A DNA stretch of 64,000 nt from Bacteroidaceae bacterium. Its GTDB lineage: Bacteria; Bacteroidota; Bacteroidia; Bacteroidales; Bacteroidaceae. Positions within the stretch are counted from its first letter, which is position 1; every line of letters starts with the position of its first letter. The translations under genes were made by a program, and so were the position numbers. The notes below the pieces were generated by a model. It was not told the DNA's origin and did no database searches. It saw only the letters and a program-made list of their open reading frames with translations. The stretch lies in assembly GCA_017536765.1 (NCBI GenBank), contig JAFXGV010000048.1, positions 3,615 through 67,614 of the forward strand, given 5' to 3'. This document shows, piece by piece, positions 30,521-47,616 of this stretch.

Positions 30521-30551
30521 TTTGGAAATCATTATTTTTAACGTATCTTTG
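30521..30551 (+). promoter_or_regulatory. candidate promoter TTTG-N19-TAtcTTTG
   Basis: TTTG at 30521-30524 and tatctttg at 30544-30551 match the remembered Bacteroides -33/-7 architecture. It would give a leader of about 280 nt before the ATG at 30843. A second -7-like box (tatatttg) sits at 30705-30712. Confidence 0.35.
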
Positions 30552-30842
30552 CAATTTGCAGATAAAAATTCCCATTTATATAGTTAATTATTTATAGATA
30601 CAAGTCCCTATTATTTCTGCACAATGATAAATGGGATGAAAAATAATAAACCTGAATAATTAACATAATTTAACAATGGGGAGGTGAAAGAAGCAAAAAG
30701 AACATATATTTGCCAAAAATTTGAGTTTTTTTGCGAAAATTATTGTAAATAAACACATTTAGGAAATTATATACAATAATCATAAAAAATTAAACATACT
30801 CGGAATAGAGAGATAGTGAAATTATAGTCGTATAAAATTATT

Positions 30843-32639
30843 ATGCAAAACATAAAGCAAGCTGTTATTTCAGCTATTTTGTTGTTTATCTCCATTCATA
30901 CAATTGCCGACGAGAAAACAAAGTCAAAAGAGCGTTGGGGATTTCACACAAATGTCATAGAATGGGTGATGACCACGCCAAACATTGGCGTGGAGTACGA
31001 TGTGGTGCATCGCGATACACGCAAAACATCTATTATGTTGTCTGGTAAATATAATTGGAATCTCGACCACGAATATAATGCATCCAACTCCAATCGCTAC
31101 ATATACAACAACTTGGGTTTGAAGGCTGAGTTGCGTTTCTACTTCAGAACAAGAGAGAAAGAGGGCTGGGAAGATATGTTGTTGAGAAACAAGAGCATAA
31201 ACGGTATTGGTAATAAGTTGTACATACGCAAAGGATTGCTTTTATCAAAAGACAAGCCCAGAACATATCGTGCCTATTACATTGCCCCCTACGTCAGCTA
31301 CGACAAGTATTCGATTAAGTTCGGCGACACGGGAAAGCAGGGAACTGCAATGTCGGCAGGTGTGTCATTCGGTTACAACACCCCTCTTTATCAATATAAC
31401 AACGGGCACGCAATAGACCTTGAGTTGGGTGCGAGCCTGGGTTTTGTTTATACAGGTTACGATAAGTTCAAATATAACAAGGAGGATGCTTGCTACACGT
31501 TAGCATCGGAAGAGCGGGGGCATCTTGTGCCTTTTCCCCTCATTACCGGTGTGCGTATGGGCTTTGTCTATCGTTACAAGTCCATTAGAAAACAACTTAA
31601 TACATATGACCGCACTTCGCTTGAATTGCTCCATAATATGTATGAGCTTAATAACGAGTACAACGAAGCCATTCCTAAATATTTCGATCCCACAACCAAT
31701 TATTACATCTCGCCCGACAGCGTGGCTGCTTGGAACAAGCACGTAAAAGAGCATAATGCTGTAGTACAAAAATTCCACCAGACATATGCAAATGCCGATT
31801 CCGCAGCTCTCCCCGTTGAACTTGTGCAAGCATATGGATATATCGACATCCCCAAAAACGGTCTCTCTAAATTTATAAGAAAGAGCCTGCCTAATAAGAA
31901 TATCACATCAATATCTGAACTTGATAACGATTATCTCAACAGTATTGTAAAAAAATATTCGGGTATCAAGGACGAGAACAGCAACAAGGATAGAGAAAAC
32001 TTTAACGAAAACATCGAGTCTGTAGAAACCGCTCTTATAACGGCCTATAAAAGTGAAAAAGAAAGAATATACACCAATACCGGCGATTCCACGCTTGCCA
32101 TCCCTATGCTGCAATACCTTATTAAAGCCATTAGTCGTGTAAACGATTGGTCGATAAGGTCTCATAACAAGAAGTATTTCATAAGTAAAAAGGGATACAA
32201 CGAGAGTGTTATTGCAAAAATCGTGCGTATCAAAAACACTGCAGATGACACTCCTAAGAGGAACAGTGCAATAAGTTTTCTTGCGCGCAAAGATACTCTT
32301 TATATGAAACGCAGCAATGGATACGAGCTCAAAGGTATGAATGCCGAGATAGAGATGTTCAATAAAATAAAGATGATGCAACTGCAAAACAGCACCATAT
32401 CGCCCGTAGCTGCGCCGGATAATGGGAATGGTGAACAAAAGGCCGGTGATGAAGCCAAGCCCACCGACGCCACTAACATTGAAACAGCCGTAACAGCAGA
32501 AAACAAGAACACCGGCGACGAGAATACCCCAAAAAGCGATGCCATCGAGGAGAATGCCAATGCCGAGGCCGTTGCCGAGAACACGGAACAAAACGGCAAC
32601 GAAGGGAGCGAGAACACAAAAGAAGCACCCAAGCAATAA
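30843..32639 (+). CDS. DUF3575-like outer-membrane domain with a C-terminal extension of about 350 aa
   Basis: Signal peptide. GFHTNVIEWVMTTPNIGVEYDV...LKAELRFYF...YYIAPYVSYDKY...GVSFGYNT...DLELGASLGFVYTGYDKF...GVRMGFVYRY matches the DUF3575 pattern. A helical region and an acidic N/E/A/T-rich tail follow. Confidence 0.8.
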   Translation: MQNIKQAVISAILLFISIHTIADEKTKSKERWGFHTNVIEWVMTTPNIGVEYDVVHRDTRKTSIMLSGKYNWNLDHEYNASNSNRYIYNNLGLKAELRFYFRTREKEGWEDMLLRNKSINGIGNKLYIRKGLLLSKDKPRTYRAYYIAPYVSYDKYSIKFGDTGKQGTAMSAGVSFGYNTPLYQYNNGHAIDLELGASLGFVYTGYDKFKYNKEDACYTLASEERGHLVPFPLITGVRMGFVYRYKSIRKQLNTYDRTSLELLHNMYELNNEYNEAIPKYFDPTTNYYISPDSVAAWNKHVKEHNAVVQKFHQTYANADSAALPVELVQAYGYIDIPKNGLSKFIRKSLPNKNITSISELDNDYLNSIVKKYSGIKDENSNKDRENFNENIESVETALITAYKSEKERIYTNTGDSTLAIPMLQYLIKAISRVNDWSIRSHNKKYFISKKGYNESVIAKIVRIKNTADDTPKRNSAISFLARKDTLYMKRSNGYELKGMNAEIEMFNKIKMMQLQNSTISPVAAPDNGNGEQKAGDEAKPTDATNIETAVTAENKNTGDENTPKSDAIEENANAEAVAENTEQNGNEGSENTKEAPKQ

Positions 32640-32678
32640 AGCAGATATTTATAATAAAGCAACAAGAATATTCATCTT

Positions 32679-33968
32679 ATGTTACGTTCATACATAAAAA
32701 ATATAATGCTATTATTTGTTGCAGCCCTTGCTGTAGTGGGTTGCGGCGATATTGAAGTGGAGCTGTGCCAATCGGACACCCACCCACACCTTGCTCCCGT
32801 GAATGTAGAATTTGTGTGGAACGAGAGTGCCGAATCGTTCAACCACGAACTCCCCGATTCTATGTACATACTAAGCTATCGCATAATAGATGCTTGGAAA
32901 AGCGGATATGTAACTACCGCCAACGCCACCGACAACAAAGGCCGATATGTATTCAACAACCCTATGGACGAAGTTGTGAAAAACGAAAGCAGTGGCAACG
33001 AGGCAACAGATGGCACAGACACACCCACCGACGACAATGAAACCTCTGACGGCACACCCGCCGACGGCGGTGATGCAACCGGCGAGGATAACAATTCCGG
33101 AGAAAATAACACCACTACAGAAGAGGCAGAGCCCTTTAATTTGAAACGTGGCGACTATCGTTTCATTGCATTGAACTATAGCGAGAATAACAGCACATTT
33201 GAATATCTTGGTTTTTCGCCCGATGCTATCAACGAGGCAATATCGAATAAAGAGTTTATAATAAAGTATCGCTCCTACAAACTGCACGATATCAATATAG
33301 ACAAGTTCGATAACGAATGGACCGATTTTAACAGATACTCGGATTATGTGCTGAGTAATGTGTCGTCGGTATATTATTGCTACACCGATGTTTACGAAAT
33401 ATCACCTAATGCCACCAATACCATTCAGATAACTCCCCAAAGCATTACGCAGGATATTGAAATACGTTTCACCGTGGAACGTCAATCGGTGGTCATCGAC
33501 AAGGTAATGGGCGAAATATCGGGTATTGCAAACAGCCTGAACGTATATACAGGCGAGGCCGATGCTTCGAAAACATACAAAATGTTGATACAACCGGTTG
33601 AGATAAACACAACCGCAACCGACGAAATGAACGGAGTGAACGAATATAGCGCAAAATTCTCGGTAACGGCTCTCGTGCGCAGCGAATCGCCCGATTTCAT
33701 CACAGGTGCGGGCATTATGCAACTTGCCATATACACACATACCATAGCCGACGACGGCAGCAAGAAAGAAAAAGTGCTTAATGTGGGCATAAACCTATAT
33801 AACACCATAAACGAGTATGGTAGAATCATATACAGGTACGAAAAGCCCATTCTGCTGAACATAGACAACATACTCACCATAAGCAGAGATAAAATACTTG
33901 AAAAAGCAGAAAGCAGCGACAACCTCGATTATTGGATTAATTACGAAGATATTGATATAGACCTATGA
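32679..33968 (+). CDS. lipoprotein, FimB/Mfa2-like (type V pilus anchor-like)
   Basis: Lipobox AVVGC, then CGDIEVELCQSDTHPHLAPVNVEFVW, resembling the start of Mfa2-family proteins. Carries an acidic D/E/T/G/N insertion of about 50 aa. Family call from memory only. Confidence 0.6.
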   Translation: MLRSYIKNIMLLFVAALAVVGCGDIEVELCQSDTHPHLAPVNVEFVWNESAESFNHELPDSMYILSYRIIDAWKSGYVTTANATDNKGRYVFNNPMDEVVKNESSGNEATDGTDTPTDDNETSDGTPADGGDATGEDNNSGENNTTTEEAEPFNLKRGDYRFIALNYSENNSTFEYLGFSPDAINEAISNKEFIIKYRSYKLHDINIDKFDNEWTDFNRYSDYVLSNVSSVYYCYTDVYEISPNATNTIQITPQSITQDIEIRFTVERQSVVIDKVMGEISGIANSLNVYTGEADASKTYKMLIQPVEINTTATDEMNGVNEYSAKFSVTALVRSESPDFITGAGIMQLAIYTHTIADDGSKKEKVLNVGINLYNTINEYGRIIYRYEKPILLNIDNILTISRDKILEKAESSDNLDYWINYEDIDIDL

Positions 33969-35275
33969 TGTTTGGAATTCTAAAAAGAGCGGCAACATTA
34001 TCACTTGTCGCAACACTTTTCGCTTGTAGCGAAAAATTTGAATCGGTGGACTACGATCCGGGATACAAAGACGAGCACCAATACGAAACCACGTATGACA
34101 AGGTGCCGGTTTTGTTGGCAATGAACAACCCCTATTACACTATGATAAGCCGTGGTGCCGGAGCCATTACGCCCGAGAACGGTTGGGTAAAACAGGAACT
34201 TACATACTATGTTTACTCATTCCTCACCAACAATTACATATACGATGGCCCCATCGACTATACGCAGAAGTGCACGCCGGATGCCGAAGAGAACCCCGAC
34301 CAACCCATACAGTGCCTTATGGACGATCCCGAGACAGGGCGTGGTGTAGCCTTCAAACTGCTGGACAACGAGATGCTTGACCAAATAGACAAGAATACCG
34401 AATATTTTTACAGCCAGTCCAACCAGTATTGCAAATACAATTTCTTTGCCTATGCAATAGACGATGCAAAGGTATTGAGTGAGGTTACACGCAATGTGGA
34501 TAATGTGCACTTCGACATTGAGATAGACGGAACACAGGATGTGATAACAGCTGTTGGCAAACCAATAGAGGAACAAATAGCCCAAATCAGTCCCACATCC
34601 GACAAGTTGCTATACTCAAACATCATTAACGGCGAGCTTGTATTCAGCACAGCCACAGGTCACCGTGGTATGTTTCCCAAGCTCGATGGCAAGCACTGTC
34701 TTTCTTTATTCCAATTTAACATAGTGGGCGAGGATGCATTAAGCGACAAAATATACATCGAGGAGATTTATGTGATGGCACACAAGCAGTGGCGTTTCAC
34801 CGTGGCTGCCGACGACCACACGAAACTTGGCCTCTCTATGCCCGAAGAAAAGAGCGAGAAGTTGGAGAAAATGGTTCTGCAGGAGATGACCGAGGAGCGC
34901 AACCCCGCAAGCGTGAAACCCTTGGCAAAGGGTGTATATCACGTAAAGAAAGATGAGAGGATAGACAACCTGGGTATGGGCCTGCTGTTGCCACCCCGCG
35001 ATAGTTACGACCTGTATGTACGTTGTCGTTATCCATCGCTCAACAGCGAAGGTAAAGAGGTAAACCGCTATTACACCGCCCGCTACAACCTTGCACACAG
35101 AGTGGTAGACGACAATGGCGTAATAGAAACCACTCCATTTGAGGCCGGTTCGCAGTACGATGTAACAATGCACATTTACGGCTATCAGCCCATACAAATG
35201 AGTATCGGTGGCCTTGCCTGGAGCGAGCCCATTGAAATTATCCTCGACGAGGACGACATAACCAACTACGAATAA
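33965..35275 (+). CDS. lipoprotein, fimbrillin (type V pilin)-like
   Basis: Lipobox TLFAC. SRGAGAI about 45 aa after the Cys resembles the pilin propeptide/first-strand region. The start overlaps the upstream stop (ATGA). Confidence 0.6.
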   Translation: MMFGILKRAATLSLVATLFACSEKFESVDYDPGYKDEHQYETTYDKVPVLLAMNNPYYTMISRGAGAITPENGWVKQELTYYVYSFLTNNYIYDGPIDYTQKCTPDAEENPDQPIQCLMDDPETGRGVAFKLLDNEMLDQIDKNTEYFYSQSNQYCKYNFFAYAIDDAKVLSEVTRNVDNVHFDIEIDGTQDVITAVGKPIEEQIAQISPTSDKLLYSNIINGELVFSTATGHRGMFPKLDGKHCLSLFQFNIVGEDALSDKIYIEEIYVMAHKQWRFTVAADDHTKLGLSMPEEKSEKLEKMVLQEMTEERNPASVKPLAKGVYHVKKDERIDNLGMGLLLPPRDSYDLYVRCRYPSLNSEGKEVNRYYTARYNLAHRVVDDNGVIETTPFEAGSQYDVTMHIYGYQPIQMSIGGLAWSEPIEIILDEDDITNYE

Positions 35276-35308
35276 GAGTATTTTAATTATTATTTTAATT
35301 TATCAATT

Positions 35309-36502
35309 ATGAAAAAGTTTTTTATTATTGCTTCGTGCATCGCAGTAGCCGGCTTCACAGCTTGCTCAAGCGATGATGACATTGCGAACAACGGTGCCAT
35401 AAGTGCCGATGAAAACAGCAATGTGCCCATTATGCTCAGTATGAGCAAGGGTATGGTAGATGTAACCACAAGAGGTACAGGCGCTGTGGGTGAGGACAAC
35501 AACAGCTGGCGTGGCGAGAAGATGAATGTTTATATGCTCGACCGTGCCACATTTGAACTTGCTACAGGTTACAACGACGAGCCTATCTTTGAGAACACCG
35601 TGGTAAATGCTCCCGCATCGACCGACCAGAACAACATTTATGCCGACTATGGTATTTCGAGATACTATCCAATGTCGGGTAACTACGATTTCTTTATGTA
35701 TCACGCCGATGATGCAGCTACAGCCACACCCAAAAAGAATGCCGAGGGTACCCAGTATGTTCTTCCTGTCACAATCGATGGTTCACAAGACCTTATGATT
35801 GCAAAGGCCGACCTGACAAATGCCGAAAAGACAGCCTTAAAGGAGTATGACGAAACCGTTTCGCGTTACTACAGCGCATTTTCGGCACGCAAAGGTGTTC
35901 AGCCTCACTTCAACCTGCAACATATGCTTGCACGCCTTGTCTTCTTCATTGAACCTGTTAACAAAAAGGTTTCGGACAAGAATGTCGATGGCGCAAACTA
36001 CTATGGTGTAACTATAGAGTCTATCAAGATTAAGAATGTGAATACATCGGCCGAGTTTATTGTTGCCTGGAACGAGAATGCTCCTGTAAACCACATTGTA
36101 AACGAAGGCAATCCCACCGAGGTAAGCCTCAAAGAACTTGTTGCTAATGAGACCGAGGCCCACAAATTGGCTCCTTTCACTCCTGTGAAACCCGAATGGG
36201 ACGATGTGGCCGACAAAGCCGTTTCGAAACGAGTAGGTGAGAGCTTGATGCTTTTCCCCGCCGATGAGTATGAACTTGAGATAAATATGACTCAGCAGCC
36301 TGCTGCCGATCGTCAGGTTATTCCCTTCACACATCGTCAGATACTAAAGGTTCCTACAGTTGATGGTAAATTCGAGGCCGGCAAGCAGTACAATGTAAAA
36401 TTTGTTGTTTACGGTGCCGAAAAGATAGACCTCTCTCTTGAGCTCACAAAGTGGGAGGAGAAAGGCAACATCACTGCCGATTTCGATACAAAAATAGACT
36501 AA
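35309..36502 (+). CDS. fimbrillin family (type V pilin) lipoprotein
   Basis: Lipobox GFTAC. VDVTTRGTGAVGED is the typical TRG-type segment of Bacteroidales fimbrillin-family proteins. Beta-rich, 397 aa. Confidence 0.7.
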   Translation: MKKFFIIASCIAVAGFTACSSDDDIANNGAISADENSNVPIMLSMSKGMVDVTTRGTGAVGEDNNSWRGEKMNVYMLDRATFELATGYNDEPIFENTVVNAPASTDQNNIYADYGISRYYPMSGNYDFFMYHADDAATATPKKNAEGTQYVLPVTIDGSQDLMIAKADLTNAEKTALKEYDETVSRYYSAFSARKGVQPHFNLQHMLARLVFFIEPVNKKVSDKNVDGANYYGVTIESIKIKNVNTSAEFIVAWNENAPVNHIVNEGNPTEVSLKELVANETEAHKLAPFTPVKPEWDDVADKAVSKRVGESLMLFPADEYELEINMTQQPAADRQVIPFTHRQILKVPTVDGKFEAGKQYNVKFVVYGAEKIDLSLELTKWEEKGNITADFDTKID

Positions 36503-36538
36503 TCACATCTCTTTTTTAGAAAGTGTGATAACAAACAA

Positions 36539-36574
36539 TCTATCTGCAAGCTCGTGCACGAGCTTGCAGATAGA
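36539..36574 (+). terminator. perfect 36-nt palindrome (hairpin) splitting the locus
   Basis: tctatctgcaagctcgtg / cacgagcttgcagataga lies 37 nt after the stop at 36502. No U-tract follows, so it may be a terminator, attenuator or processing site. Confidence 0.45.
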
Positions 36575-36664
36575 GATATAAAACAAAAAGTAATGCATTG
36601 CGGGGGCGAGATATGGCCCACGCTGTAAAATAAAAGATGAAAATCAATTTAATGCTGTTGCGTT

Positions 36665-37204
36665 GTGATTAAAAGAATTTTCATAATAGGAATTTTATTA
36701 TTGTCGGTCTCATTTACGAGGGCACAGATGCTTGCCGTAAAATGCGATTTGGCAAAAGGAGTGGCAATGGCTCCAAATCTTGGTGTTGATTTTGTTGTTG
36801 GTGAAAAAACCACATTTGGTGTAGATATCTTTGGCGTGAAACAGCCCTGGGGCAAGGAAGCAAAGATGTTTGCAATTTCTCCCGATATTCGTTATTGGTT
36901 TGGCGGACGTGCGCTCATACGTCATTATGTGGAGCTCTCTGCCGTAGTTGCCAATTACGATATCCACCACAAGAATAAGATACGTGACGGTAACACCGTT
37001 GGTGCCGGCATTATGTTCGGCCGTGCATACAAGATAACATCGCACTTGAATTTTGAAATTTCGGGTGGTCTTGTTATGCTCAAATATAACCAGAAAGAGT
37101 ATTACAAAGGCGACATATACGAGGATTATGGTGAGCGCACAAACAGCAAAGGCTCGCTAATGCTTCCTCAAATAGAGGCCTCAATATCATATATAATAAG
37201 ATAA
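36665..37204 (+). CDS. DUF3575 domain outer-membrane protein (canonical size)
   Basis: 179 aa, signal peptide. LAVKCDLAKGVAMAPNLGVDFVVGEK...ISPDIRYWF...GAGIMFGRAYKI... fits DUF3575. Apparent GTG start at 36665. Confidence 0.82.
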   Translation: MIKRIFIIGILLLSVSFTRAQMLAVKCDLAKGVAMAPNLGVDFVVGEKTTFGVDIFGVKQPWGKEAKMFAISPDIRYWFGGRALIRHYVELSAVVANYDIHHKNKIRDGNTVGAGIMFGRAYKITSHLNFEISGGLVMLKYNQKEYYKGDIYEDYGERTNSKGSLMLPQIEASISYIIR

Positions 37205-37222
37205 TTTTACTATTTGTCACTT

Positions 37223-40012
37223 ATGCGCTTGCGTCTATTTTACATATTGTTTGCATTTTTAGCCGTTGCCAATATAGGTGTTGCACAGGCACAAAACACC
37301 ATTGACTATTCTGCCTCGGTGGAATATGATGTGTGGCCCGATAATGCTGACCCCACAAATCCTTATAAGGATGTAAAGATTTATGCCTATCCCGGTGAGG
37401 CCGATGCTCGGGCTGCACTCGATGATTTGAAGAAAGGAATTGAGCCTAAATTAAAAATGAGTGCACCTATAAACATAACAGGTGATTTCACCGTAAGAGT
37501 TCTTGACGACAAGAATTCTGTAGTGCTCATATATGCTATGGGGTATGAGGCACAGATAATCAAGCGCGCCGAGTTTGGCAGTAAAAGGCAAATCACGCTC
37601 AAGAAAGACGAAAAGATAGTGAAAGAGGTTGAGGTTGTCGAAGATAGAATAAGAAAAGGCTTGAACGCGGAATTTGATGGTGCAGAACACCCGGGTGGCC
37701 CAATGACACGCATTGCCAATTTTATTATTCCTTATAGGCTAACCTCCAATATGCGCATTGTGGCACAGCCTGTGTTTTATGACAGAATAGACATCACCGA
37801 CAACGAGCTCGACACGGTATTTGCCTATCGCAGCGTTGTGTACAACGACAACAGCGAGTACAAGATATCGCAAGCACGCAGAATGGATTTCCACCCCGAA
37901 AAGTACGATTCTCTTCAATACTGCTATAGTATGAACAATGTGTACATTAAATACGATTCGGTATATGACGAAGAGGCACACAAAAAGGTATGTCGAGAAA
38001 TAGATAAATCCAGAATAGATGTTTTTACAGGAAAAGACACTATATATGTCCATCTCATAGATACAGTGAGCGGATGCGACCCCAACACAGCACACCCATA
38101 CCCATTGGCGGCTATAGTCAATGTTGTAGATTACAACACAGTACTCTACACCGAAACCCAAAGAGACGAAGGCGAACGTTATGCCCCCCTTAAATTCCTT
38201 GATTTTGAATTTGCCGAATTCAAACCCGATTCAATGGCTTTTTACGAAGAGCCAGAGGTGGTGAATGTGCCGCACAATGGTGAGATGCGCCTAAACTTTG
38301 AGGTGGGCAAATGGCATTTGTCGCTCGAGGATTCAGTCAATTATAAGTTGATGAAAGAGCTTACCGAGTCGTTGCAGGAGATTGAGAACGACAGCGAGAA
38401 CCGCACCCTCGACTATGTTTGCATATATGGTATGGCCTCTCCCGACGGAAACCTGCAACAGAACATAGAACTTGCAAAAAAGCGTGCCAGGGAGCTTAAA
38501 AGCAAAATACGCACAAAAACGCATATAACAGACGGGAAGCCTATAGTTGCTTCTTGGGAACAAGTAGCCGACTCGCTCGAACGCGACGGCTACACCACCG
38601 TGGCAAATGAGATTAGAGAATTTGTTGTTACAAATAAAAGAGGGATATCAAGCATACCATCGTACAACAAGGAACTGATGGAGACCTACCTCAATAAGTT
38701 CCGTTCGGTACATTATAAGTATGAGGAAACAAGAAGGGAGAAGAAAAACCCCGCCCTTATTCTAAAGGATTATAAGAAGGATCCCGAGACTGTGTATAAA
38801 TCGGGCTATTGGATTCTTTTCAACCACTTGACAGATAAAAAGCAATTGCGAGAGGTAGCCCGCAACGCATTGAAGGTAACACGATTCGATGAAAACAGGA
38901 ACAACCCCGACAAGCACTACGGTTATTGGCCATATGCCGCAAGTATTTTGGCACACTCTTGCGTGGCAACAGATACAATAGATTATACCATTCTCGATCC
39001 TTTCCTCGATCTTGAGCTTTACAAAGACTCTGTTGATGGCAAGATGAAATTACCGGCCTTCGATAGTTCCAAAGGCTTTGGCTCCACCAAAATAGAGCGC
39101 TATTTCAATGCACCCGAGAATGCAGCCAATCAATTAATTATGACTCTGAAGGGGCAAAGTAGCACCCGCAAGGGTAAAATTGAACATCTTGAAATAATAG
39201 CGAGTGCCGGTGGCGAGGCTAAATACGACACCTTGATTGCATTTTCAAGATGTATGCGCGGGAAATACTTGAATGATAGTGTTGCAAGAAATATGGTGGC
39301 ATCGACTTCGCCCACAAATGGTGTGGTTATGAACCTTGTTATGCACCATTATACACAAGATACCACATACCTGGCCGCAGCTGCCGAGGATACATTGCAC
39401 TTGCCCGACAATGCAGTGAGCAACTATTTGAAATCCATTCTATGTTTGCGCAAAAAGGCTTTTGATTCATCAAAAATGAATCTTGCCAGCTCATTCTGCA
39501 AGGATATAAAAATGATTGCCCTGGCCAATAACGACAAGGATCTAAAATCGGAAGACGAGCATATGATTGTGGATGCTATAGGGTATTGGCGCAAAATGAT
39601 GCCCGACTCTATAAAAAAGCAGAACAGGAAAGAAAAGATTGTGTATGAAATGCCGCAGGCAACGATAGCCGATGTTGTAGCCGATTCACTTTCGGCAGAC
39701 TCTTTGTCACTAAGCGAAGTGGCTGCAGCGCTCCCCACAGATAGCGTGGCCCCTGTGAAGAGGGTGGTTTATGAGGAGATGAGTGATGAGGAGTATCGCA
39801 AGCACCCCTTTATAATGTTCAACGAGGCATATGAAATACTCACCGACAAAAAACAAAATAACGATGCAGTTGCCATAGATAATCTATATAAAGCATTTGA
39901 CTGCGACAAAGAGTATATCAACGTATTCAATGTATTGCTTGTGCGTGATAAAAACGTGAACAAGGACAAAGAATTGCTAAAGAGACTCAGAGAGATAAGG
40001 GATAGATATTAA
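37223..40012 (+). CDS. large exported protein, DUF3868-like N-terminal part with an OmpA-C-like core and a long helical C-terminal half
   Basis: Signal peptide MRLRLFYILFAFLAVANIGVAQAQ. RLNFEVGKWHLS...IYGMASPDGNLQQNIELAKKRARELKSKI is the OmpA-like/DUF3868-protein motif (G.ASPEG...N..La..RA). It follows a DUF3575 gene, as DUF3868 genes usually do. ATG 37223 preferred over TTG 37214. Confidence 0.72.
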   Translation: MRLRLFYILFAFLAVANIGVAQAQNTIDYSASVEYDVWPDNADPTNPYKDVKIYAYPGEADARAALDDLKKGIEPKLKMSAPINITGDFTVRVLDDKNSVVLIYAMGYEAQIIKRAEFGSKRQITLKKDEKIVKEVEVVEDRIRKGLNAEFDGAEHPGGPMTRIANFIIPYRLTSNMRIVAQPVFYDRIDITDNELDTVFAYRSVVYNDNSEYKISQARRMDFHPEKYDSLQYCYSMNNVYIKYDSVYDEEAHKKVCREIDKSRIDVFTGKDTIYVHLIDTVSGCDPNTAHPYPLAAIVNVVDYNTVLYTETQRDEGERYAPLKFLDFEFAEFKPDSMAFYEEPEVVNVPHNGEMRLNFEVGKWHLSLEDSVNYKLMKELTESLQEIENDSENRTLDYVCIYGMASPDGNLQQNIELAKKRARELKSKIRTKTHITDGKPIVASWEQVADSLERDGYTTVANEIREFVVTNKRGISSIPSYNKELMETYLNKFRSVHYKYEETRREKKNPALILKDYKKDPETVYKSGYWILFNHLTDKKQLREVARNALKVTRFDENRNNPDKHYGYWPYAASILAHSCVATDTIDYTILDPFLDLELYKDSVDGKMKLPAFDSSKGFGSTKIERYFNAPENAANQLIMTLKGQSSTRKGKIEHLEIIASAGGEAKYDTLIAFSRCMRGKYLNDSVARNMVASTSPTNGVVMNLVMHHYTQDTTYLAAAAEDTLHLPDNAVSNYLKSILCLRKKAFDSSKMNLASSFCKDIKMIALANNDKDLKSEDEHMIVDAIGYWRKMMPDSIKKQNRKEKIVYEMPQATIADVVADSLSADSLSLSEVAAALPTDSVAPVKRVVYEEMSDEEYRKHPFIMFNEAYEILTDKKQNNDAVAIDNLYKAFDCDKEYINVFNVLLVRDKNVNKDKELLKRLREIRDRY

Positions 40013-40040
40013 AAGGCTGAATAAGAGATTTTCATTCAAG

Positions 40041-43000
40041 ATGATAAATGCAAGAATAAGACAGATAATACTGTGTTGTTGTATGCTGTTTGCAGTGCCA
40101 TATGCTGCCACGTATGCCTCTGATGCAAGGATAGCCGTGGCAGGTGTACCGGCCGACAGCGTGAAGAAAAGCAAAAATGCAACAGGCGAGGGACATTACG
40201 CGGCAGGATATAAAGGATACAATGCATTGAAATACTCAATGCAGAAAAGACACCGTTACCCCGACCGTGTAAAGTTCTCCAACACCTCAATTTTGTCGCA
40301 TCTATATACGGGTGTATTATTGTCGTATGACCAAATTGCAAAGCAAAAGGATTTAGAGTTCTCGTCGGCAGTTTCGTATGGTCTGCTCGTGGGAAAAGAT
40401 ATTTCAAAGACTCACTCATTGAGTTTGCAGTTCCTTTATGGCAACACTCCGTTGAAACGTGTGAAGCGTGAACAGAATGCCGAACTTACCAAAATGTCGG
40501 CGCAGCTAAATCACCATTTCAATTTCACACGTTACTATCTGGGGCACGACGCTTACCGTATTTACGAGATTGCATCTACATTAGGTGTAGGCTATCAGTC
40601 TTTGGAGTTGTTTAACAAGAAAGACAATTCCTCGTACTTTTTGGTGGGATTGAGAAACTCGTTCCGCATTGGCCCCGATGCCATTCTGCTCATAGAGCCT
40701 CACGTTGCATATGCAAGCAAGAGCTACGATGTGTCGAAGATTGATTATACCTCGAACAAATACAACGTCTCTTATGGTGTGAGCACAGCTTTGTTGTATG
40801 AATTCAGGAACGAACTGGCAGGGGTGGAAAGAGCCAAAGACGAATTCCTCTTCCCACGAAACTATTTTTTTACAGGTGGCGGCTTGCAGTATCTCGATAC
40901 CGATGTGTTGCTTGTCGATGGTGTAGGTCCTAACTTTGTTTTTGGCTATGGTCGTTGGATTGCCCGCCATTTTGCAATGCAATTCTCAGCCGGCTACACT
41001 TCCGGCATATGGAGGAATAAAGAAATTCTGCCCGACATAAAGAAGAATATTGCAGGCAATACTGCATATGCACGTAGCCAACAGGCTTTTGCACGTGCCG
41101 AATTGTTGTATAACATCTATACAACGGTAAAGAGCAGAAACGCTATAAAAAACGACCTTTCAGTTAATATTTTTGGTGGTTACGAATATGGTATGCTATG
41201 GAAATATTATCCCACAGTGAAAAACCAGGAAAACTGCTATTATGGCGGCTTCACCTCGGGTGTAAACCTCAAGTACCACATTGATAACAGCACTGCGCTC
41301 TTTTTTGAGCCACGCATCACGTTTATAAGCTACAACACACCATACAATGCACCATATGACTATGTGAAGGTTGCCGAAAAGTACAAACGTTACAGCATTG
41401 CTATGGGTATGGAACTTGCGGCCGACAAGCAAACCGTGAAGACTTCCAAGGCCGAGGATGGATTTACACCCGAGTACTCTTTCTCGCTTTTTGGCGGCGC
41501 AAACTATCTCATTGAACGTACCGGATATTATGGAGATAATACCGGCGACTATAGCTTTGGCCTCCTTATCGACCACCAACCACATCGTCTGTATGGCTAC
41601 CGCGTGATGGCCGATTATTCAAAGTACAACCTTGCCAATGTACTTAACTACAATTACACAACGGGCGACAAAACCACATCGAGCACAGGCCGCTGGGATT
41701 ATAGCTACAATATACTCTCGGTGGGATTGAACTTGAAGTTCGACATAACCAATGCCTTTTTTGGGCACAATGCATCGAGGCGTTGGCGTAGTGCCTTGTA
41801 TGTAGGCCCCCTTGCAAGCAAGATAATAGGTATGGATAAATCGTTGGCACCTCACGAGCCCCTGCCTGGCGATAGGGTAGCAAAGATAAACAAGAAATAT
41901 AATGATGAAATAAATTTGGGTGTATATGCGGGTATAAACTACCGCTACTATATGAACCGAGCTTGGAGCGTCTTTGCCGAAGGTGGTATGCGCGTATATA
42001 AAAATGAGTTTATACCCCACGAGTCGCTCGACTACAACCCCGTGAAGATGATGAACTTTATGGCCGGTGTCAGCTACAACCATCAGAGCGACATCAATGC
42101 CATAAAGAGCAGATATCTATTCCCTCGCAATTATCTTTTCCAGGGGGTAGGCTTGCAATACGTAAACTCCGACGTGGAATTTCTCGATGGTCTTGGGCCA
42201 CAACTCTCTTTGGGTTACGGTCGTTGGCTCTGTCGCCGGCTTGCGTTGCAGATGTCGATGAATTATGCATCGAGTAACAGTAGCAAAAAGAAACAGCCTG
42301 CAAACATTAAAGAAGGACACCCCGCATATATGGGCTATGGAAAAACTCAATCACTGGCACTGCGTGGCGAGGTTGTTTACAATTTCCTCACAACCATAAA
42401 AGACCGCAATGCCATAAAGAACGACTTTTCTTTAAATGCAATTTTGGGTTATGAAATAGGTGCCCGTTGGGATTATGCAGCACTAAAAGATGAGAATATG
42501 AGTGGTAGTTATACGGGCGTTACCGGCGCTTTGAATTTCAAGTACCACATAGACGATTCATATGCGCTGTTTATAGAGCCGCGAACCACAATGTCTAAAT
42601 ATTCAAAAAAATATAACAAGGAGAATGGTGAGGTTTCATACAACCACAGTCTTATGGCCGGTATTGAACTTCCCTTTGACAGAGGTAATTTCAAATTCTA
42701 CAAAAAGGAGCAGAATGAGTTTGTCCCCGAATACACATTCTCGGTATTTGCGGGAGTGAACCATCTGTTCAGGAAAAAGAGCAACGAGGGATACGATGAC
42801 TACGACACCAACTTAGGTGTTGCCATCGGTTATCAACCGCATCCGCTTTTTGGCTATAGAATGATGTTTAATTATGCAAAATATAATTTCAATGACATAA
42901 GCCAATATACCGAGCGCTTAAACGGAAAAACTTATTCATACCAAGGCTTGTGGAACTACAAATATCACCTGCTTACATTGGGTGCAGACATTAAATTCGA

Positions 43001-45761
43001 CGTCACTAACGCACTCTATGGTTACACCCCCAATAGAAAATGGAAGAGTTCGCTCTATGTGGGCCCGGTGGCTGCGCAAATCGTTAAACTCGAATCGAAG
43101 ATTGCACCCAACGTATTGACTTTTGAAGGAAGTACTGTAAAATTAAACAAGAAATATAACGACAAATTGCAAATTGGTTTACACGCAGCATACAACGCAA
43201 GCTATACATTCTATAAAGGTTTTGATATCTTTGCCGAAGTGGGCTTGAAAATGTTCAAAGATGCTATGATGCCCGGCGAAGATTTGCACTACAAACCCAT
43301 AAAGATGATGGATTTTAATCTTGGTATGAATTACAGATTAAAAGAGAAGACCGGTGTTGCAAACGAGGGTGATTTCTTCCGTCGCAATTACATCTTCAAT
43401 GGTGTGGGTATTCAATACACAAACACAGATGTTCCTTTGGTCGATGGTGTGGGCCCGCAATTTGCATTTGGTTATGGCCGCTGGCTATTGAAACGCACTG
43501 CCATCCAAGTGGCGCTTGGCTACTCTGCCGGAAACGGCCAGCAAAAGCTGGTGCACGCAACAAAAACCAATCCCAAATATTTGGCATTTGGCAATATGCA
43601 GTATGCCTTTATGCGTAGCGAGATTGTTAACAATGTTTACACTACAATAAATGACCGCAATGCTGTAAATAACGATTTTTCTGTAAATGTATTGGCCGGT
43701 ATTGAGTTGGGGCATCGTTGGAAATATCATTCTTTAGGCGGCCAGGTGGATAAAGGCTATACCGCCCCTACAATAGGCGTAAATTTGAAATATCACCCCA
43801 ATTCAAACTATGCATTATTCGTGGAGCCCCGCTTTGCATACATCGAAGGCCTGAGCCGCTATAATATAAACGTGGGTGTAGAGTATTCTATGGACAAAGA
43901 GACTCTTGCCAACAGGAACCATTCCACGAAATATGAGCCGCAGGTGGCTGTTGCTTTGAATGGGGGAGTAAACTACATTGTCAAGCGCACCGGTTACAAC
44001 GGCAAAAGCAATGCAAACACATCGTTTGGCGCATCTATTGAGTATCAGCCATACAAATTGTTTGGTGTACGTGCGTTGTTCGATTACTCAACAATCGGTT
44101 TCAATCACATTTACAAATACACTCAGAATGTTGATGGTGTGACGAATGAAAAGAAAGGGTTGTGGAACAAGACTTATCATATTGCATCACTCGGTATTGA
44201 TGGCAAATTCGATGTTACAAATGCACTTTATGGTTACAACCCCGATAGAAAGTGGAACAGTGCAATATATCTTGGTCCTGTGATATCTACCATCGTTAAA
44301 CTCGACTCCAAGATTAGTGCTGATGAAAAGTTCGAGGGCAAGGCAAGCATTAAAAAGAGATATAAAGATGGCGCCAACATAGGGTTGCACGCAGCATTTA
44401 ACACAAGCTATTATATAACACCTTTGTTCGGTATTTTTGGGGAAGTTGGTATTAGGGCATATAAAAACACATTTATCCTCGGTGAAGACCTCGACTATAA
44501 TCCCATTAAGATGCTTAACTTCAACCTTGGTGTAAGCTACAGAATGAAGAATAGCGGACTGGGCTCTAAAGAGAACGAGGCACCATACAACAGCTATTTC
44601 TTCAGTGGTGCAGGCCTGCAATACACAAACACCGACGTTCCTTTGGTCGACGGTGTGGGCCCGCAGGTGGCATTTGGTTACGGACGTTGGCTATCCAACC
44701 GCGTGGCATTGCAGATGACTCTCGGATATTCGGCCGGCAATTCACATCAGAGATATATTTCGGCCACCAAAACACATCCGAAATATATAGCATACGGCAA
44801 CACACAGTATATGTTTATGCGTGGCGAATTGGTAACAAACCTCTTCTCTACAATAAGCGATAAGGGAGCTGCATCAAATGATTTTTCCGTGAATCTTGCA
44901 ACCGGCCTCGAACTTGGCGGCCGTTGGAAATACGTGGCAGCCTCGAAGAGCCAGAACGATGGCAGCTATGTGGCACCCACAGTGGGCATAAACCTCAAAT
45001 ATCACCCCAACGAGAGCTATGCACTCTTTGTGGAGCCTCGTGCCGCATTCATCAAGGGGTTAGCGCGCTACAATGTGAATGTAGGTGTTGAATGTGCGAT
45101 GGATAAGGATGTATACAAGAAAGGCGGTTCCGATGAATTTGAGCCACAATACTCATTATCGGTAATGGGCGGAACGAACTATCTTATCAAACGCACAAGC
45201 TACAAGGGCAAGAAGAATGCCAACACATCATTTGGCATTGCAGCGGAGTATCAGCCTGTTAAATCCTTTGGCGTACGCGCATTGTTCGATTATTCGAGCT
45301 ACGGTTTCAACGACGTATGCAGATATACCGAAAGAACAGATGGTGCGTTACGCAATGATAAAGGCTTATGGAATTACAGCTACAAGATGCTCTCTTTGGC
45401 TGTAGATGCAAAATATGACCTCACAAACGCCATAAAGGGTTACGATGCCGACAGACGTTGGAGAAATGCCCTCTATGTAGGCCCTGTGTTCACAAAGATA
45501 ACCAAGCTCGATGCCGAAATTTCATCGGCCGAGAAGATAAAAGGCGGCAGCCTCGCAATAGGCAAGAAATATGACGATGGCCTGCATATAGGTTTGCACG
45601 CTGCATACAATACCACATACTCGCTCACACCATCGCTGAACCTGTTTGGCGAGGTGGGAGTGAAACTCTACAAGAACGAGTTGTTTATGAGCGAAAGCCT
45701 CGATTACAACCCTGTGAAAGCGTTCAGTTTCCAACTTGGTATAAGCTATAATATTAAATAA
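40041..45761 (+). CDS. 1906-aa exported protein of tandem beta-barrel-like modules (no named family)
   Basis: Signal peptide MINARIRQIILCCCMLFAVPYAATYA. Four tandem repeats share DG(V/L)GPxxxxGYGRW, DFS(V/L)N, NLKYH, F(V/I)EPR, GLWNY.Y, KFD(V/I)TNA, LYVGP, LDYNP(V/I)KM and a ...G(I/V)SY..K end. Alternating hydrophobic strands run throughout. Confidence 0.85.
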   Translation: MINARIRQIILCCCMLFAVPYAATYASDARIAVAGVPADSVKKSKNATGEGHYAAGYKGYNALKYSMQKRHRYPDRVKFSNTSILSHLYTGVLLSYDQIAKQKDLEFSSAVSYGLLVGKDISKTHSLSLQFLYGNTPLKRVKREQNAELTKMSAQLNHHFNFTRYYLGHDAYRIYEIASTLGVGYQSLELFNKKDNSSYFLVGLRNSFRIGPDAILLIEPHVAYASKSYDVSKIDYTSNKYNVSYGVSTALLYEFRNELAGVERAKDEFLFPRNYFFTGGGLQYLDTDVLLVDGVGPNFVFGYGRWIARHFAMQFSAGYTSGIWRNKEILPDIKKNIAGNTAYARSQQAFARAELLYNIYTTVKSRNAIKNDLSVNIFGGYEYGMLWKYYPTVKNQENCYYGGFTSGVNLKYHIDNSTALFFEPRITFISYNTPYNAPYDYVKVAEKYKRYSIAMGMELAADKQTVKTSKAEDGFTPEYSFSLFGGANYLIERTGYYGDNTGDYSFGLLIDHQPHRLYGYRVMADYSKYNLANVLNYNYTTGDKTTSSTGRWDYSYNILSVGLNLKFDITNAFFGHNASRRWRSALYVGPLASKIIGMDKSLAPHEPLPGDRVAKINKKYNDEINLGVYAGINYRYYMNRAWSVFAEGGMRVYKNEFIPHESLDYNPVKMMNFMAGVSYNHQSDINAIKSRYLFPRNYLFQGVGLQYVNSDVEFLDGLGPQLSLGYGRWLCRRLALQMSMNYASSNSSKKKQPANIKEGHPAYMGYGKTQSLALRGEVVYNFLTTIKDRNAIKNDFSLNAILGYEIGARWDYAALKDENMSGSYTGVTGALNFKYHIDDSYALFIEPRTTMSKYSKKYNKENGEVSYNHSLMAGIELPFDRGNFKFYKKEQNEFVPEYTFSVFAGVNHLFRKKSNEGYDDYDTNLGVAIGYQPHPLFGYRMMFNYAKYNFNDISQYTERLNGKTYSYQGLWNYKYHLLTLGADIKFDVTNALYGYTPNRKWKSSLYVGPVAAQIVKLESKIAPNVLTFEGSTVKLNKKYNDKLQIGLHAAYNASYTFYKGFDIFAEVGLKMFKDAMMPGEDLHYKPIKMMDFNLGMNYRLKEKTGVANEGDFFRRNYIFNGVGIQYTNTDVPLVDGVGPQFAFGYGRWLLKRTAIQVALGYSAGNGQQKLVHATKTNPKYLAFGNMQYAFMRSEIVNNVYTTINDRNAVNNDFSVNVLAGIELGHRWKYHSLGGQVDKGYTAPTIGVNLKYHPNSNYALFVEPRFAYIEGLSRYNINVGVEYSMDKETLANRNHSTKYEPQVAVALNGGVNYIVKRTGYNGKSNANTSFGASIEYQPYKLFGVRALFDYSTIGFNHIYKYTQNVDGVTNEKKGLWNKTYHIASLGIDGKFDVTNALYGYNPDRKWNSAIYLGPVISTIVKLDSKISADEKFEGKASIKKRYKDGANIGLHAAFNTSYYITPLFGIFGEVGIRAYKNTFILGEDLDYNPIKMLNFNLGVSYRMKNSGLGSKENEAPYNSYFFSGAGLQYTNTDVPLVDGVGPQVAFGYGRWLSNRVALQMTLGYSAGNSHQRYISATKTHPKYIAYGNTQYMFMRGELVTNLFSTISDKGAASNDFSVNLATGLELGGRWKYVAASKSQNDGSYVAPTVGINLKYHPNESYALFVEPRAAFIKGLARYNVNVGVECAMDKDVYKKGGSDEFEPQYSLSVMGGTNYLIKRTSYKGKKNANTSFGIAAEYQPVKSFGVRALFDYSSYGFNDVCRYTERTDGALRNDKGLWNYSYKMLSLAVDAKYDLTNAIKGYDADRRWRNALYVGPVFTKITKLDAEISSAEKIKGGSLAIGKKYDDGLHIGLHAAYNTTYSLTPSLNLFGEVGVKLYKNELFMSESLDYNPVKAFSFQLGISYNIK
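40842..42110 (+). repeat. intragenic repeat R1 (about 423 codons)
   Basis: Starts EFLFPRNYFFTGGGLQYLDTDVLLVDGVGPNFVFGYGRW. The GYGRW codons begin at 40944. Confidence 0.8.
42111..43370 (+). repeat. intragenic repeat R2 (about 419 codons)
   Basis: Starts RYLFPRNYLFQGVGLQYVNSDVEFLDGLGPQLSLGYGRW. The GYGRW codons begin at 42213 (offset 1269 nt from R1). Confidence 0.8.
43371..44580 (+). repeat. intragenic repeat R3 (about 402 codons)
   Basis: Starts DFFRRNYIFNGVGIQYTNTDVPLVDGVGPQFAFGYGRW. The GYGRW codons begin at 43470 (offset 1257 nt from R2). Confidence 0.8.
44581..45758 (+). repeat. intragenic repeat R4
   Basis: Starts APYNSYFFSGAGLQYTNTDVPLVDGVGPQVAFGYGRW. The GYGRW codons begin at 44676 (offset 1206 nt from R3). 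It runs to the stop codon. Confidence 0.8.
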
Positions 45762-45768
45762 GTTATAT

Positions 45769-47562
45769 ATGATAAAAAGAATTGTTATATCAATATTTGC
45801 AATTGTGGCGTTTGTTAACCCACACAATGCGGCAAATGCAATAAACATTATAAAAATGTGCAGGCAGGATAGCATTGCGCAAACAGCCGACAGCATCGCC
45901 ACCATAGAGGCTGTGGCAGCAGATAGCACGACTGTTGTTCTGGCGGCAGACAGTGCAAATCACACGCCCGAAGTAGCTGAAGAGAAGCCTGCTGTTATGG
46001 ACACGCTTGAAATATTAAACCCTTATATATTAGAGGTGAGAGGCAAACGCCGACACTTTATAACAGAAGCCCTGCCGGCTGATGAGTATAACACCTGCTA
46101 TAAATTCTACAAGGAACATTTGGAACAAGGTGAACTATTCATAGCTTATGATTCCTGGAGAAAGGTATTCTGCAGCAGCGAAGAGAGAAGCATCGCACTA
46201 TTCAATGATGGTGTGCCCATCATTATGGGCAAGTTTGCAAATGACACAGCTATGCAAGTATATGACAATATTAAAAAATATCGCGAGGAGGTTGAGGAAC
46301 TATATGAAATTGCAATAGAAAACATAGACAAGCTAAACGAACAGATTGATTACAGCCGTGGCGGTAAACCCATAACAACAGCCGAGTTGCGCTCGCAGCA
46401 ATTGTTCCACTACGACAATATGCTTGTGATAGACTCTATATTCAGCCACAATTACCACAATAACTACAACAACGACGAAGATAGAAAATATTGGACCGAG
46501 GCAATCTTCAAGGATAGCGCCGAGGTTTATAAGCATTATGCGTGGCTCAAGGAGATGATTTTCTCGGAGGATAAAATGAATATTAAACAGTTGGTGGATT
46601 TTTCGGTTATTCTCAATGCTAAAATGAACAACGACGTCAAACGTCTTAACCTTAAAGAGAATATCGAACTTGCGCGTTTCATTGCCGGCCAAATGCAGCC
46701 CGAAAAGGAGAGGTGCATTGAGAAGATGAACGAGTTGTATGACGATGTGAATTACGGCCCACATTCAAAAACTATGCACGCCAATTTGGCTGCGGCCGAA
46801 GAATTTGTTGTGGACGATCCCGTAAAGCTCGAGGCTATGTATCGCAAAACAATAGCCGAGGGTGGATACACACAGGAGATCCTAACAAAAATTCTAAACA
46901 GTGCTCAATTGAAGAATGCCGGCAGCCCGCTCTATTTGGAGGCTTTGGAACAAAAGTACCAAAAGGAGCCTACATACGCATTGGCATTGGCTTTGTCCGA
47001 TGGTTATTTGAAACTTGCCAACAAAGCGAAATCAAATAATGATAAGAAGGAAAAGGCTAATAAAGCACTCATATATTATCAGAAGATTTTTGATTTCCCC
47101 GAGTTCGAGGCAAAAAGCAATTACGATAAAGCACGTAGCTATGTGCAACTTGCCAAGTTGTTAATCTCGCCTAATCTTAATAAAAGAGCAGATGCTTATA
47201 AGAGTTGTGAAAAGGCAATAAGTTTGGCACCGGAATATCCTATGTCTTATTTTGTTATAGCTCAGATGGTAGCAGAATATCCATTGACAAACCGTGAACA
47301 GGTAGCTTTTTATGCACGTTTCATTGTGGCCTATGAATATAGCCAAAAGGCCATAGCAAAAATTGCAGAACTGAAAAACTCGGGTAGTGATGCTAAAATT
47401 GATATAGATGAAAACTTGTTGAGACAGACTTCAGCATCGTATAGAAAAAATTTCTTGCCAATAGATTTTGCATTCAACCGTGGTATAAAGGATGGTGACG
47501 ATTATACTTTACCTTTACCATTTCATAAATTCCCAATAAAATTGCGTATAGCAAATGAATAA
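45769..47562 (+). CDS. exported helical protein with a TPR-like C-terminal region
   Basis: Signal peptide MIKRIVISIFAIVAFVNPHNAANA. Mostly helical composition. TPR-like segment ALIYYQKIFDF...ARSYVQLAKLLI...AYKSCEKAISLAPEYPMSYF. Starts 7 nt after the giant gene's stop. Confidence 0.72.
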   Translation: MIKRIVISIFAIVAFVNPHNAANAINIIKMCRQDSIAQTADSIATIEAVAADSTTVVLAADSANHTPEVAEEKPAVMDTLEILNPYILEVRGKRRHFITEALPADEYNTCYKFYKEHLEQGELFIAYDSWRKVFCSSEERSIALFNDGVPIIMGKFANDTAMQVYDNIKKYREEVEELYEIAIENIDKLNEQIDYSRGGKPITTAELRSQQLFHYDNMLVIDSIFSHNYHNNYNNDEDRKYWTEAIFKDSAEVYKHYAWLKEMIFSEDKMNIKQLVDFSVILNAKMNNDVKRLNLKENIELARFIAGQMQPEKERCIEKMNELYDDVNYGPHSKTMHANLAAAEEFVVDDPVKLEAMYRKTIAEGGYTQEILTKILNSAQLKNAGSPLYLEALEQKYQKEPTYALALALSDGYLKLANKAKSNNDKKEKANKALIYYQKIFDFPEFEAKSNYDKARSYVQLAKLLISPNLNKRADAYKSCEKAISLAPEYPMSYFVIAQMVAEYPLTNREQVAFYARFIVAYEYSQKAIAKIAELKNSGSDAKIDIDENLLRQTSASYRKNFLPIDFAFNRGIKDGDDYTLPLPFHKFPIKLRIANE

Positions 47563-47567
47563 TTTAT

Positions 47568-47613
47568 AAGTACGACCAACGGCTTGCAAAATTGCAAGCC
47601 GTTGGTCGTACTT
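47568..47613. terminator. bidirectional terminator hairpin
   Basis: aagtacgaccaacggcttgc aaaatt gcaagccgttggtcgtactt forms a 20-bp perfect stem between convergent stops at 47562 (+) and 47617 (-). Confidence 0.75.
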
Positions 47614-47616
47614 ATA

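Follow-up and report, generated by a model that had tools for sequence, protein, structure and literature searches.

A predicted poly-8 multibarrel protein within a conserved DUF3575, OmpA-fold/TPR and lipoprotein gene cassette of gut Bacteroidales

Two kinds of described system come closest to the locus considered here. The poly-8 multibarrels (MB-superfamily 1), a class defined computationally by Solan, Pereira, Lupas, Kolodny and Ben-Tal (PNAS 2021), are restricted to the Bacteroidetes, mainly Prevotella and Bacteroides; they carry 2–11 barrels, are traced to an 8-8-8 ancestor with later amplification, include an (8)9 form that is mentioned in passing, and are of unknown function, adhesion or avidity having been suggested (PMC8346858). 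That study contains no gene-neighbourhood or partner analysis for the poly-8 superfamily (PMC8346858), and within the literature searched we met no later study of multibarrels. The second kind is the type V pilus (Fim/Mfa) locus; how its pilins are sorted to the cell surface is described as unknown (PMC13655056). In the literature searched, DUF3575 and DUF3868 turn up in gene lists only, one of which locates both within a few genes of a B. thetaiotaomicron fimbrillin of the Mfa1 family. Here we analyse a locus of eight co-directional genes, g1 to g8, in a 64,000-nucleotide (nt) stretch of contig JAFXGV010000048.1 from a Bacteroidaceae bacterium (hereafter the window). The locus is a chromosomal envelope gene cassette of a Prevotella-like member of the gut Bacteroidales, and its giant seventh product belongs to the poly-8 class.

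The likeness to poly-8 proteins extends to several properties. The product of g7 consists of tandem 8-stranded barrels on one chain; both groups are restricted to Bacteroidetes and are commonest in Prevotella and Bacteroides; the g7 family has a three-barrel base form, N-A-B, enlarged by tandem amplification, as the poly-8 class has its 8-8-8 base; and g7 itself, with the arrangement N-(A-B)4, resembles the (8)9 form. Going beyond the published account, the family described here lies within a conserved cassette of DUF3575, OmpA-fold/TPR, TPR and DUF5119 genes, and one member (P0019) has about 15 barrels, where the published range ends at 11. We are confident of the identity and conservation of this cassette, and the conserved partner set of poly-8 proteins appears to be the new point. 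Multibarrel outer-membrane proteins were predicted in 2021 without a function, a partner or an experimental handle, and the cassette provides a first testable functional context: the poly-8 proteins examined come with fixed partners, namely a pair of DUF3575 barrels, a protein that combines an OmpA fold with TPR and, in most cases, a helical/TPR protein, and are tied to type V pilus-like lipoprotein genes. A structural curiosity is thereby turned into testable hypotheses on proteins acting together, two of them from a family, DUF3575, that is common in gut Bacteroidales.

The gene g7 (40041–45761, + strand) encodes 1906 amino acids (aa), which internal repeats divide into an N domain (residues 1–257) and four A-B modules (258–680, 681–1101, 1102–1503 and 1504–1906) of about 400–420 aa each, pairwise 38–60% identical. 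Pfam and NCBIfam returned nothing for g6, g7 or g8 of the window at E ≤ 0.01, and the fold of g7 was assigned by structure prediction. An AlphaFold2 (AF2) model of module 3, computed from a 27-module alignment (mean predicted local distance difference test score (pLDDT) 87.4, predicted template-modelling score 0.79), contains 8 strands, a short helix and 8 more main strands, several of them 18–25 residues long. Searched against the PDB with Foldseek, this model superposes on Ail, OmpX and OmpA at target-normalised template-modelling scores (TMt) of 0.64–0.73, compared with a score of about 0.2 and a root-mean-square deviation of about 20 Å for the large barrels FadL and OmpG. Because superposition is good only with 8-stranded barrels, each module is best read as two small barrels, A and B, and g7 as N-(A-B)4 with about nine barrels; a single 16-stranded barrel per module was rejected on the Foldseek result. 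The N domain is probably a barrel likewise, given its weak similarity to the modules and its reuse as a repeat unit in relatives. The label "poly-barrel", attached to the 1906-aa protein by an earlier note made from the letters of this stretch, is thus borne out by AF2 and Foldseek. Separately, a description of g7 as a "poly-DUF3575" protein was considered and dropped, as hhalign gave DUF3575 against the g7 barrels a probability of only 17%.

An exhaustive hidden Markov model (HMM) search of 1.84 billion representatives identified 444 members of the g7 family at E ≤ 1e-3, and 90 at E ≤ 1e-30, each member being a cluster representative at 50% identity. Among the best 150 of the 444, N-A-B is the commonest architecture (66 representatives); N-(A-B)2, N-(A-B)3, N-(A-B)4 and N-(A-B)7 account for 12, 12, 3 and 1, respectively, and N-A-N-A variants also occur. 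P0019 (L023:8453–17122; loci are given by our own numbering) is a protein of 2889 aa that reaches N-(A-B)7 and is set in the same cassette, and P0044, P0057, P0070, P0122 and P0150 repeat other units (N-A-N-A-N-A, N-N-N-N-N-A). Since the repeat units differ among these relatives, amplification must have used different barrel pairs in different lineages. Within g7, modules 3 and 4 (43344–45758) are 56–60% identical to one another and about 40% identical to modules 1 and 2, and the orthologue in L001, 55% identical to g7, has three modules only, so that the terminal A-B pair was duplicated fairly recently and in a lineage-specific manner. The family raises the questions of why barrel number differs so much among close relatives in dominant gut genera and of how the beta-barrel assembly machinery (BAM) inserts up to about 15 barrels of one chain.

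A scan of GTDB species genomes, for which the full-length g7-family alignment was anchored on the N-domain motif [HY]FNF[TS]RYY, placed genome matches in Bacteroidaceae metagenome-assembled genomes, an uncultured Prevotella sp. and Segatella. In a cultured type strain, Segatella maculosa DSM 19339, a contig edge holds a gene for a distant g7 homologue (L020:1–3435; at least 1144 aa), in which A and B barrels number three each, and a 962-aa Mfa_like_1 protein is encoded 6 kb 3' of it; this strain is a possible experimental entry point.

Gene neighbourhoods were gathered from exact-protein look-ups, from the GTDB scan and with HMMs built per gene family, and orthology of g1, g2, g5, g6, g7 and g8 across loci was established by BLASTP and HMM. 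A g6-family gene lies immediately 5' of the barrel gene in 22 distinct loci (window included), and the short DUF3575 gene, g5, lies directly 5' of the g6 homologue in all 20 loci in which this position can be read (window again included). Farther 5', the long-DUF3575 gene, g1, is found in every locus with enough flank, followed in most loci by the DUF5119 lipoprotein gene, g2 (not in L017, L019 or L026), and a helical gene of 450–830 aa, homologous to g8 in closer relatives, stands 3' of the barrel gene in most. The g7-family proteins of these loci are 22–98% identical to g7 and range from 3 barrels (L024, L027, L028) to about 15 (L023). The order g5-g6-g7 is kept although the surrounding chromosomal genes are of at least four unrelated kinds (redoxin/Dus, NDK/M23, DcaP/PHO4 and MetRS), and in L026, where the barrel gene is of the N-A-N-A type, two successive DUF3575 genes and a g6 homologue still precede it. 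The proposal in the earlier note that the giant gene forms one system with its DUF3575, g6 and TPR partners, put forward as open to refutation by the neighbourhoods of its homologues, is supported by the 22 loci that have an adjacent g6, with one exception (L021/L022) that is weighed below.

Fimbrillin-like genes, placed between g2 and g5, number from zero to five per locus, and 14 of the 21 loci readable from the long-DUF3575 gene to the barrel gene (the window among the 21) have none. Because their number varies in this way, the pilins are the accessory part of the locus, and the barrel cassette together with g1, and usually g2, is its constant part. The idea that the giant protein replaces pilins therefore does not hold, the barrel cassette being constant and the fimbrillins optional.

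The neighbour on the 5' side of the barrel gene, g6 (37223–40012, + strand), encodes 929 aa from an ATG at 37223, or 932 aa from a TTG at 37214. Its AF2 model, computed from 33 homologues (mean pLDDT 79.4), comprises an N-terminal alpha/beta and beta-sandwich region, an alpha/beta domain at about residues 346–505 and a helical solenoid at about 510–928. Foldseek matched the middle domain to the OmpA-like domains 3td5, 3td4, 4erh, 1r1m, 5u1h, 7rjj and 5nhx (TMt 0.54–0.67, probability 1.00) and the solenoid to TPR superhelices (TMt 0.32–0.52). Profile comparison of g6 with the C-domain of E. coli OmpA by hhalign gave E = 7.8e-5, and a distant g6 orthologue has an OmpA match at E = 8.5e-4. The motif G-M-A-S-P-[DE]-G...N..LA..RA, at residues ~403–422, is kept across the 33 homologues, and R421, the Arg of the canonical Asp/Arg diaminopimelate-binding pair, is invariant. 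The Asp of that pair aligns with Ser, and peptidoglycan binding by g6 is no more than plausible. In Pfam, six g6 orthologues had no match to DUF3868 (PF12984) even at E ≤ 5; of the two names given to g6 in advance, DUF3868 is therefore not detectably borne out and OmpA-like is carried by the fold.

The two DUF3575 genes differ in how completely they match the family. The short gene, g5 (36665–37204, + strand), encodes a canonical 179-aa DUF3575 protein with a signal peptide and matches PF12099 over its full length (94.2 bits, cut-off 21.1); the long one, g1 (30843–32639, + strand; 598 aa), matches partially (59.3 bits, same cut-off): its product starts with a barrel domain of DUF3575 type, continues with helices and ends in a low-complexity tail that is variable and rich in N, A, E, T and K. 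Searching PDB sequences with the g5 and g2 profiles yielded nothing meaningful. At the 3' end of the cassette, g8 (45769–47562, + strand) encodes an exported protein of 597 aa, the C-terminal part of which resembles TPR proteins weakly in sequence. The description "TPR-like" is partly backed, in that its weak profile matches are solely to TPR proteins, and partly not, as the g8 of the window has no Pfam TPR match. Genes at the g8 position in L019, L023, L025 and L027 carry TPR matches in Pfam, the one in L019 encoding a clear TPR protein.

Three lipoprotein genes lie between the DUF3575 genes, with the lipobox Cys in VVGC (g2), LFAC (g3) and FTAC (g4). DUF5119 is matched by 9 of 12 orthologues of g2 (32679–33968, + strand; 429 aa), a Cys...Cys..HPH motif is conserved C-terminal to the lipobox, and no match to Mfa2 or FimB was found in Pfam, NCBIfam or PDB sequences. 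The optional g3 (33965–35275, + strand; 436 aa) has no Pfam match; BLASTP to an Mfa_like_1 neighbour in L002 gives E = 7e-24, and g3 encodes a divergent relative of fimbrillin-like proteins. The equally optional g4 (35309–36502, + strand; 397 aa) is a fimbrillin-family lipoprotein of the Mfa_like_1 type (PF13149, 41 bits, cut-off 27), in which the lipid-modified Cys is followed by the acidic stretch SSDDD. We take this C-SSDDD stretch to resemble the surface-export signal of Bacteroidetes lipoproteins. Taking the labels of the earlier note together, those for the first four genes stand for g1 (DUF3575, by a partial match) and for g3 and g4 (fimbrillin-like), and are not borne out for g2, which was called Mfa2-like and matches only DUF5119; among the last four, DUF3575 for g5 stands, OmpA-like for g6 and poly-barrel for g7 stand on the models, DUF3868 for g6 has no detectable match behind it, and TPR-like for g8 is weakly backed.

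The eight genes occupy 30843–47562 on the + strand and encode exported proteins, with intergenic distances from g1 to g8 of 39, −4, 33, 162, 9, 28 and 7 nt, g2 and g3 overlapping by ATGA at 33965–33968. The co-directional arrangement, the spacing, the overlap and the 162-nt gap had all been described before, and the open reading frame (ORF) coordinates reproduce them. A basic n-region and a hydrophobic core are present at all eight N-termini (read by eye and from hydropathy, without SignalP), in agreement with the signal peptides assigned to all eight products and the lipoboxes assigned to three. The leader 5' of g1 spans 358 nt at 26.5% G+C (GC) and contains a promoter-like site, TTTG-N19-TATCTTTG, at 30521–30551 (+ strand); both the AT-rich leader and the promoter-like match had been reported, and both were found again. 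The site fits TTTG-N19-TAnnTTTG, the promoter consensus of Bacteroides type. This consensus has 6 matches in 64 kb, compared with 1.6 expected, the site in the leader being the sole + strand match in the locus, and none falls in the 162-nt gap between g4 and g5. Scans for sigma-70 promoters (60 found, 43 expected) and intrinsic terminators (22 found, 19 expected) were uninformative for a Bacteroidales genome.

Within the g4-g5 gap, the palindrome at 36539–36574 is perfect over 36 nt (18+18), as had been claimed, and as RNA it folds with −28.1 kcal/mol (z = −9.8 relative to shuffled controls). The terminator-like hairpin that closes the locus, between the convergent g8 and redoxin genes, is present as well, and is larger than the 20-bp stem at 47568–47613 first proposed: a perfect stem of 24–25 bp with 25-nt arms at 47565–47616 (−42.8 kcal/mol, z = −11.7 relative to shuffled controls). 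Hairpins of unrelated sequence follow the last fimbrillin gene in L001 (6491–6535, 20-nt arms, z = −9.5) and L024 (6626–6659, 14-nt arms, z = −7.1), so that the post-fimbrillin hairpins of the window, L001 and L024 are conserved in position and stability and not in sequence. L002 has a short 9+9-nt palindrome after its last fimbrillin gene, L008 has no hairpin there, and none was found in the short gaps of the three pilin-less loci examined (L003, L005, L023). The element may be an intra-operon attenuator or an RNA-stabilising structure that parts highly expressed subunit genes from the cassette.

Set beside the type V pilus systems, the locus shares with Fim/Mfa and DUF3575-DUF3868-Mfa2-fimbrillin loci its lipoprotein fimbrillin-family genes, g4 and g3, and a leading DUF3575 gene; the OmpA-like g6, next after a second DUF3575 gene, stands at the place of DUF3868. 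Unlike those loci, it has no recognisable Mfa2/FimB anchor (g2 being DUF5119) and no DUF3868 match in g6, fimbrillins are dispensable across relatives, and multibarrel and TPR proteins are added. The resemblance to OmpA is one of fold, as the g7 barrels superpose on OmpA, OmpX and Ail and the middle domain of g6 on OmpA-like domains (3td5, 4erh, 1r1m, 5u1h). Here, unlike in OmpA, barrel and OmpA-like domain belong to different polypeptides, about nine barrels take the place of one, and the OmpA-like domain of g6 falls under the Pfam threshold and has Ser at the expected peptidoglycan-binding Asp. By analogy, the locus would be related to Fim/Mfa and would work like OmpA; it is not a demonstrated Fim/Mfa member, no Mfa2 anchor having been recognised.

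A mechanism consistent with these comparisons can be outlined. The constant core of the cassette is g1, g5, g6 and g7, usually joined by g2 and g8, with g3 and g4 as an optional insert between g2 and g5. After export of all products from the cytoplasm by Sec, g7 would reside in the outer membrane as about nine 8-stranded barrels of OmpX/OmpA type whose long hairpins project from the surface, and g5 and the barrel of g1 would join it there. The OmpA-fold domain of g6 may then tie the barrel array to peptidoglycan and its TPR solenoid tie the array to partner proteins, so that g5/g7 and g6 would amount in effect to a split, multivalent OmpA, with g8 as a second periplasmic scaffold or an assembly factor. 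The resulting wall-tethered platform could anchor or organise type V pilus-like surface lipoproteins (g2 and, in loci that have them, g3/g4), and tandem copies of the A-B pair would adjust its size and valency. All eight genes would form a single operon, in which the hairpin that follows the fimbrillin genes would give the parts before and after it unequal transcript levels. That the locus encodes a multi-barrel platform, linked to peptidoglycan and tied to lipoproteins like those of type V pili, is a tentative proposal, to which we give somewhat less than even credence. A stronger form, in which a poly-8 protein, the DUF3575 barrels of g1 and g5 and a pair of periplasmic TPR proteins, one of them with an OmpA fold, make up a previously unrecognised envelope machine, a peptidoglycan-tethered assembly or anchoring platform for lipoprotein-derived type V-like fibres, we consider unlikely; if true, it would be a first function for multibarrel outer-membrane proteins and for the widespread DUF3575, and it would bear on the surface sorting and anchoring of type V pili.

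The peptidoglycan-linked platform is proposed from folds and synteny, and several observations weigh against it. The Pfam OmpA family (PF00691) is matched weakly by six of six g6 orthologues (15–20 bits, below the cut-off of 27.2), and Ser (ASP[DE]G) is what g6 aligns, by HMM, with the Asp of the canonical peptidoglycan-binding pair, so that peptidoglycan binding by g6 may be altered or lost. DUF3575 has no detectable homology to the g7 barrels at the hhalign probability given above. All PDB matches of the g8 profile are TPR proteins, but they are weak (E 0.02–0.1), and the g8 HMMs do not pick up the TPR proteins 3' of distant N-A-B genes, so for the distant counterparts of g8 we claim no more than equivalence of position. 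Among distant relatives, gene context was read for 10 members out of the 444 cluster representatives. Finally, L021/L022 have g1, g2 and four fimbrillin genes, followed by a three-barrel gene, without g5, g6 or g8.

This last arrangement also suits a different account, in which two independent units stand side by side: g1-g4 would be an operon of type V pilus kind that stops at the palindrome, and g5-g8 a barrel/OmpA/TPR operon acting as a multivalent adhesin or envelope stabiliser. The very stable hairpin inside the 162-nt gap would fit such a boundary, as would the lack of fimbrillin genes in most related loci, and Solan et al. suggested adhesion or avidity for poly-8 proteins with no partners invoked (PMC8346858). 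However, a g1-family gene lies 5' of g5 wherever the flank can be read, including in pilin-less loci and in the most distant ones (L019, L026), and does so in different genomic neighbourhoods; g2 is kept in most pilin-less loci, where the gap between g2 and g5 is merely ~20–70 nt; and the g4-g5 gap lacks the Bacteroides-type promoter consensus. We therefore regard two separate units as rather unlikely. Another possibility is that the multibarrel and the DUF3575 barrels are the missing outer-membrane device for export or assembly of the lipoprotein pilins, a translocon comparable to an usher or to Slam by which g2-g4 would reach the surface, with g6 and g8 as periplasmic chaperones. TPR proteins often serve as periplasmic chaperones, so their presence would be in keeping with this role, as would the linkage of the g7 family to fimbrillin or DUF5119 lipoprotein genes. 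OmpX/OmpA-type 8-stranded barrels, however, have no open lumen, and it is only on such small barrels that the model superposes; to our knowledge, pilus assembly in P. gingivalis, from the well-studied fim and mfa loci, needs no genes like g5-g8. The surface sorting of type V pilins, stated to be unknown (PMC13655056), leaves room for a translocon, but most loci have no fimbrillin genes at all, and the g7 family is sporadic, the 1.84 billion representatives searched yielding 444 of its clusters (50% identity). We hold this account to be quite improbable.

Composition bears on whether the locus was acquired as a genomic island, its AT-richness being foreign. The locus is AT-richer than its flanks, as had been noted, with a GC of 0.434 compared with 0.471 for the rest of the window, and GC at third codon positions (GC3) is 0.43–0.57, about 10 points lower than the values of mostly 0.55–0.68 elsewhere in the window; two earlier spot checks (19/60 for 43141–43200 and 40/60 for the lepA line 4321–4380) were exact. 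The cassette also occupies different chromosomal sites in different clades. Against this, several other genes of the window are as AT-rich as the locus or more so, and L001 shares the downstream junction (redoxin, Dus), with 70% identity for flanking proteins and 44–72% for cassette proteins, as vertical descent predicts. No tRNA was found within the 64-kb window, and a domain scan of four flanking genes returned common metabolic or housekeeping domains and no integrase or transposase domain. The island idea of the earlier note is accordingly weak: we consider foreign acquisition as the source of the AT-richness very improbable and a recent island unlikely, and an older transfer between clades is a possibility, since the site of the cassette differs by clade.

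Some other genes of the window deserve mention. The most compositionally deviant is a 378-aa ORF at 59107–60240 (− strand; GC 0.36, GC3 0.31) without a Pfam match. At 8531–9763 (+ strand), a 411-aa protein combines an HU-type DNA-binding domain (residues 6–94) with about 300 further residues that have no Pfam match. A BspA-type LRR_5 surface-protein gene lies at 51087–52793 (− strand; GC3 0.39), 3.5 kb 3' of the cassette, and a BspA-type LRR_5 gene stands immediately 5' of the cassette in L004 (1–1947) and L005 (211–2064).

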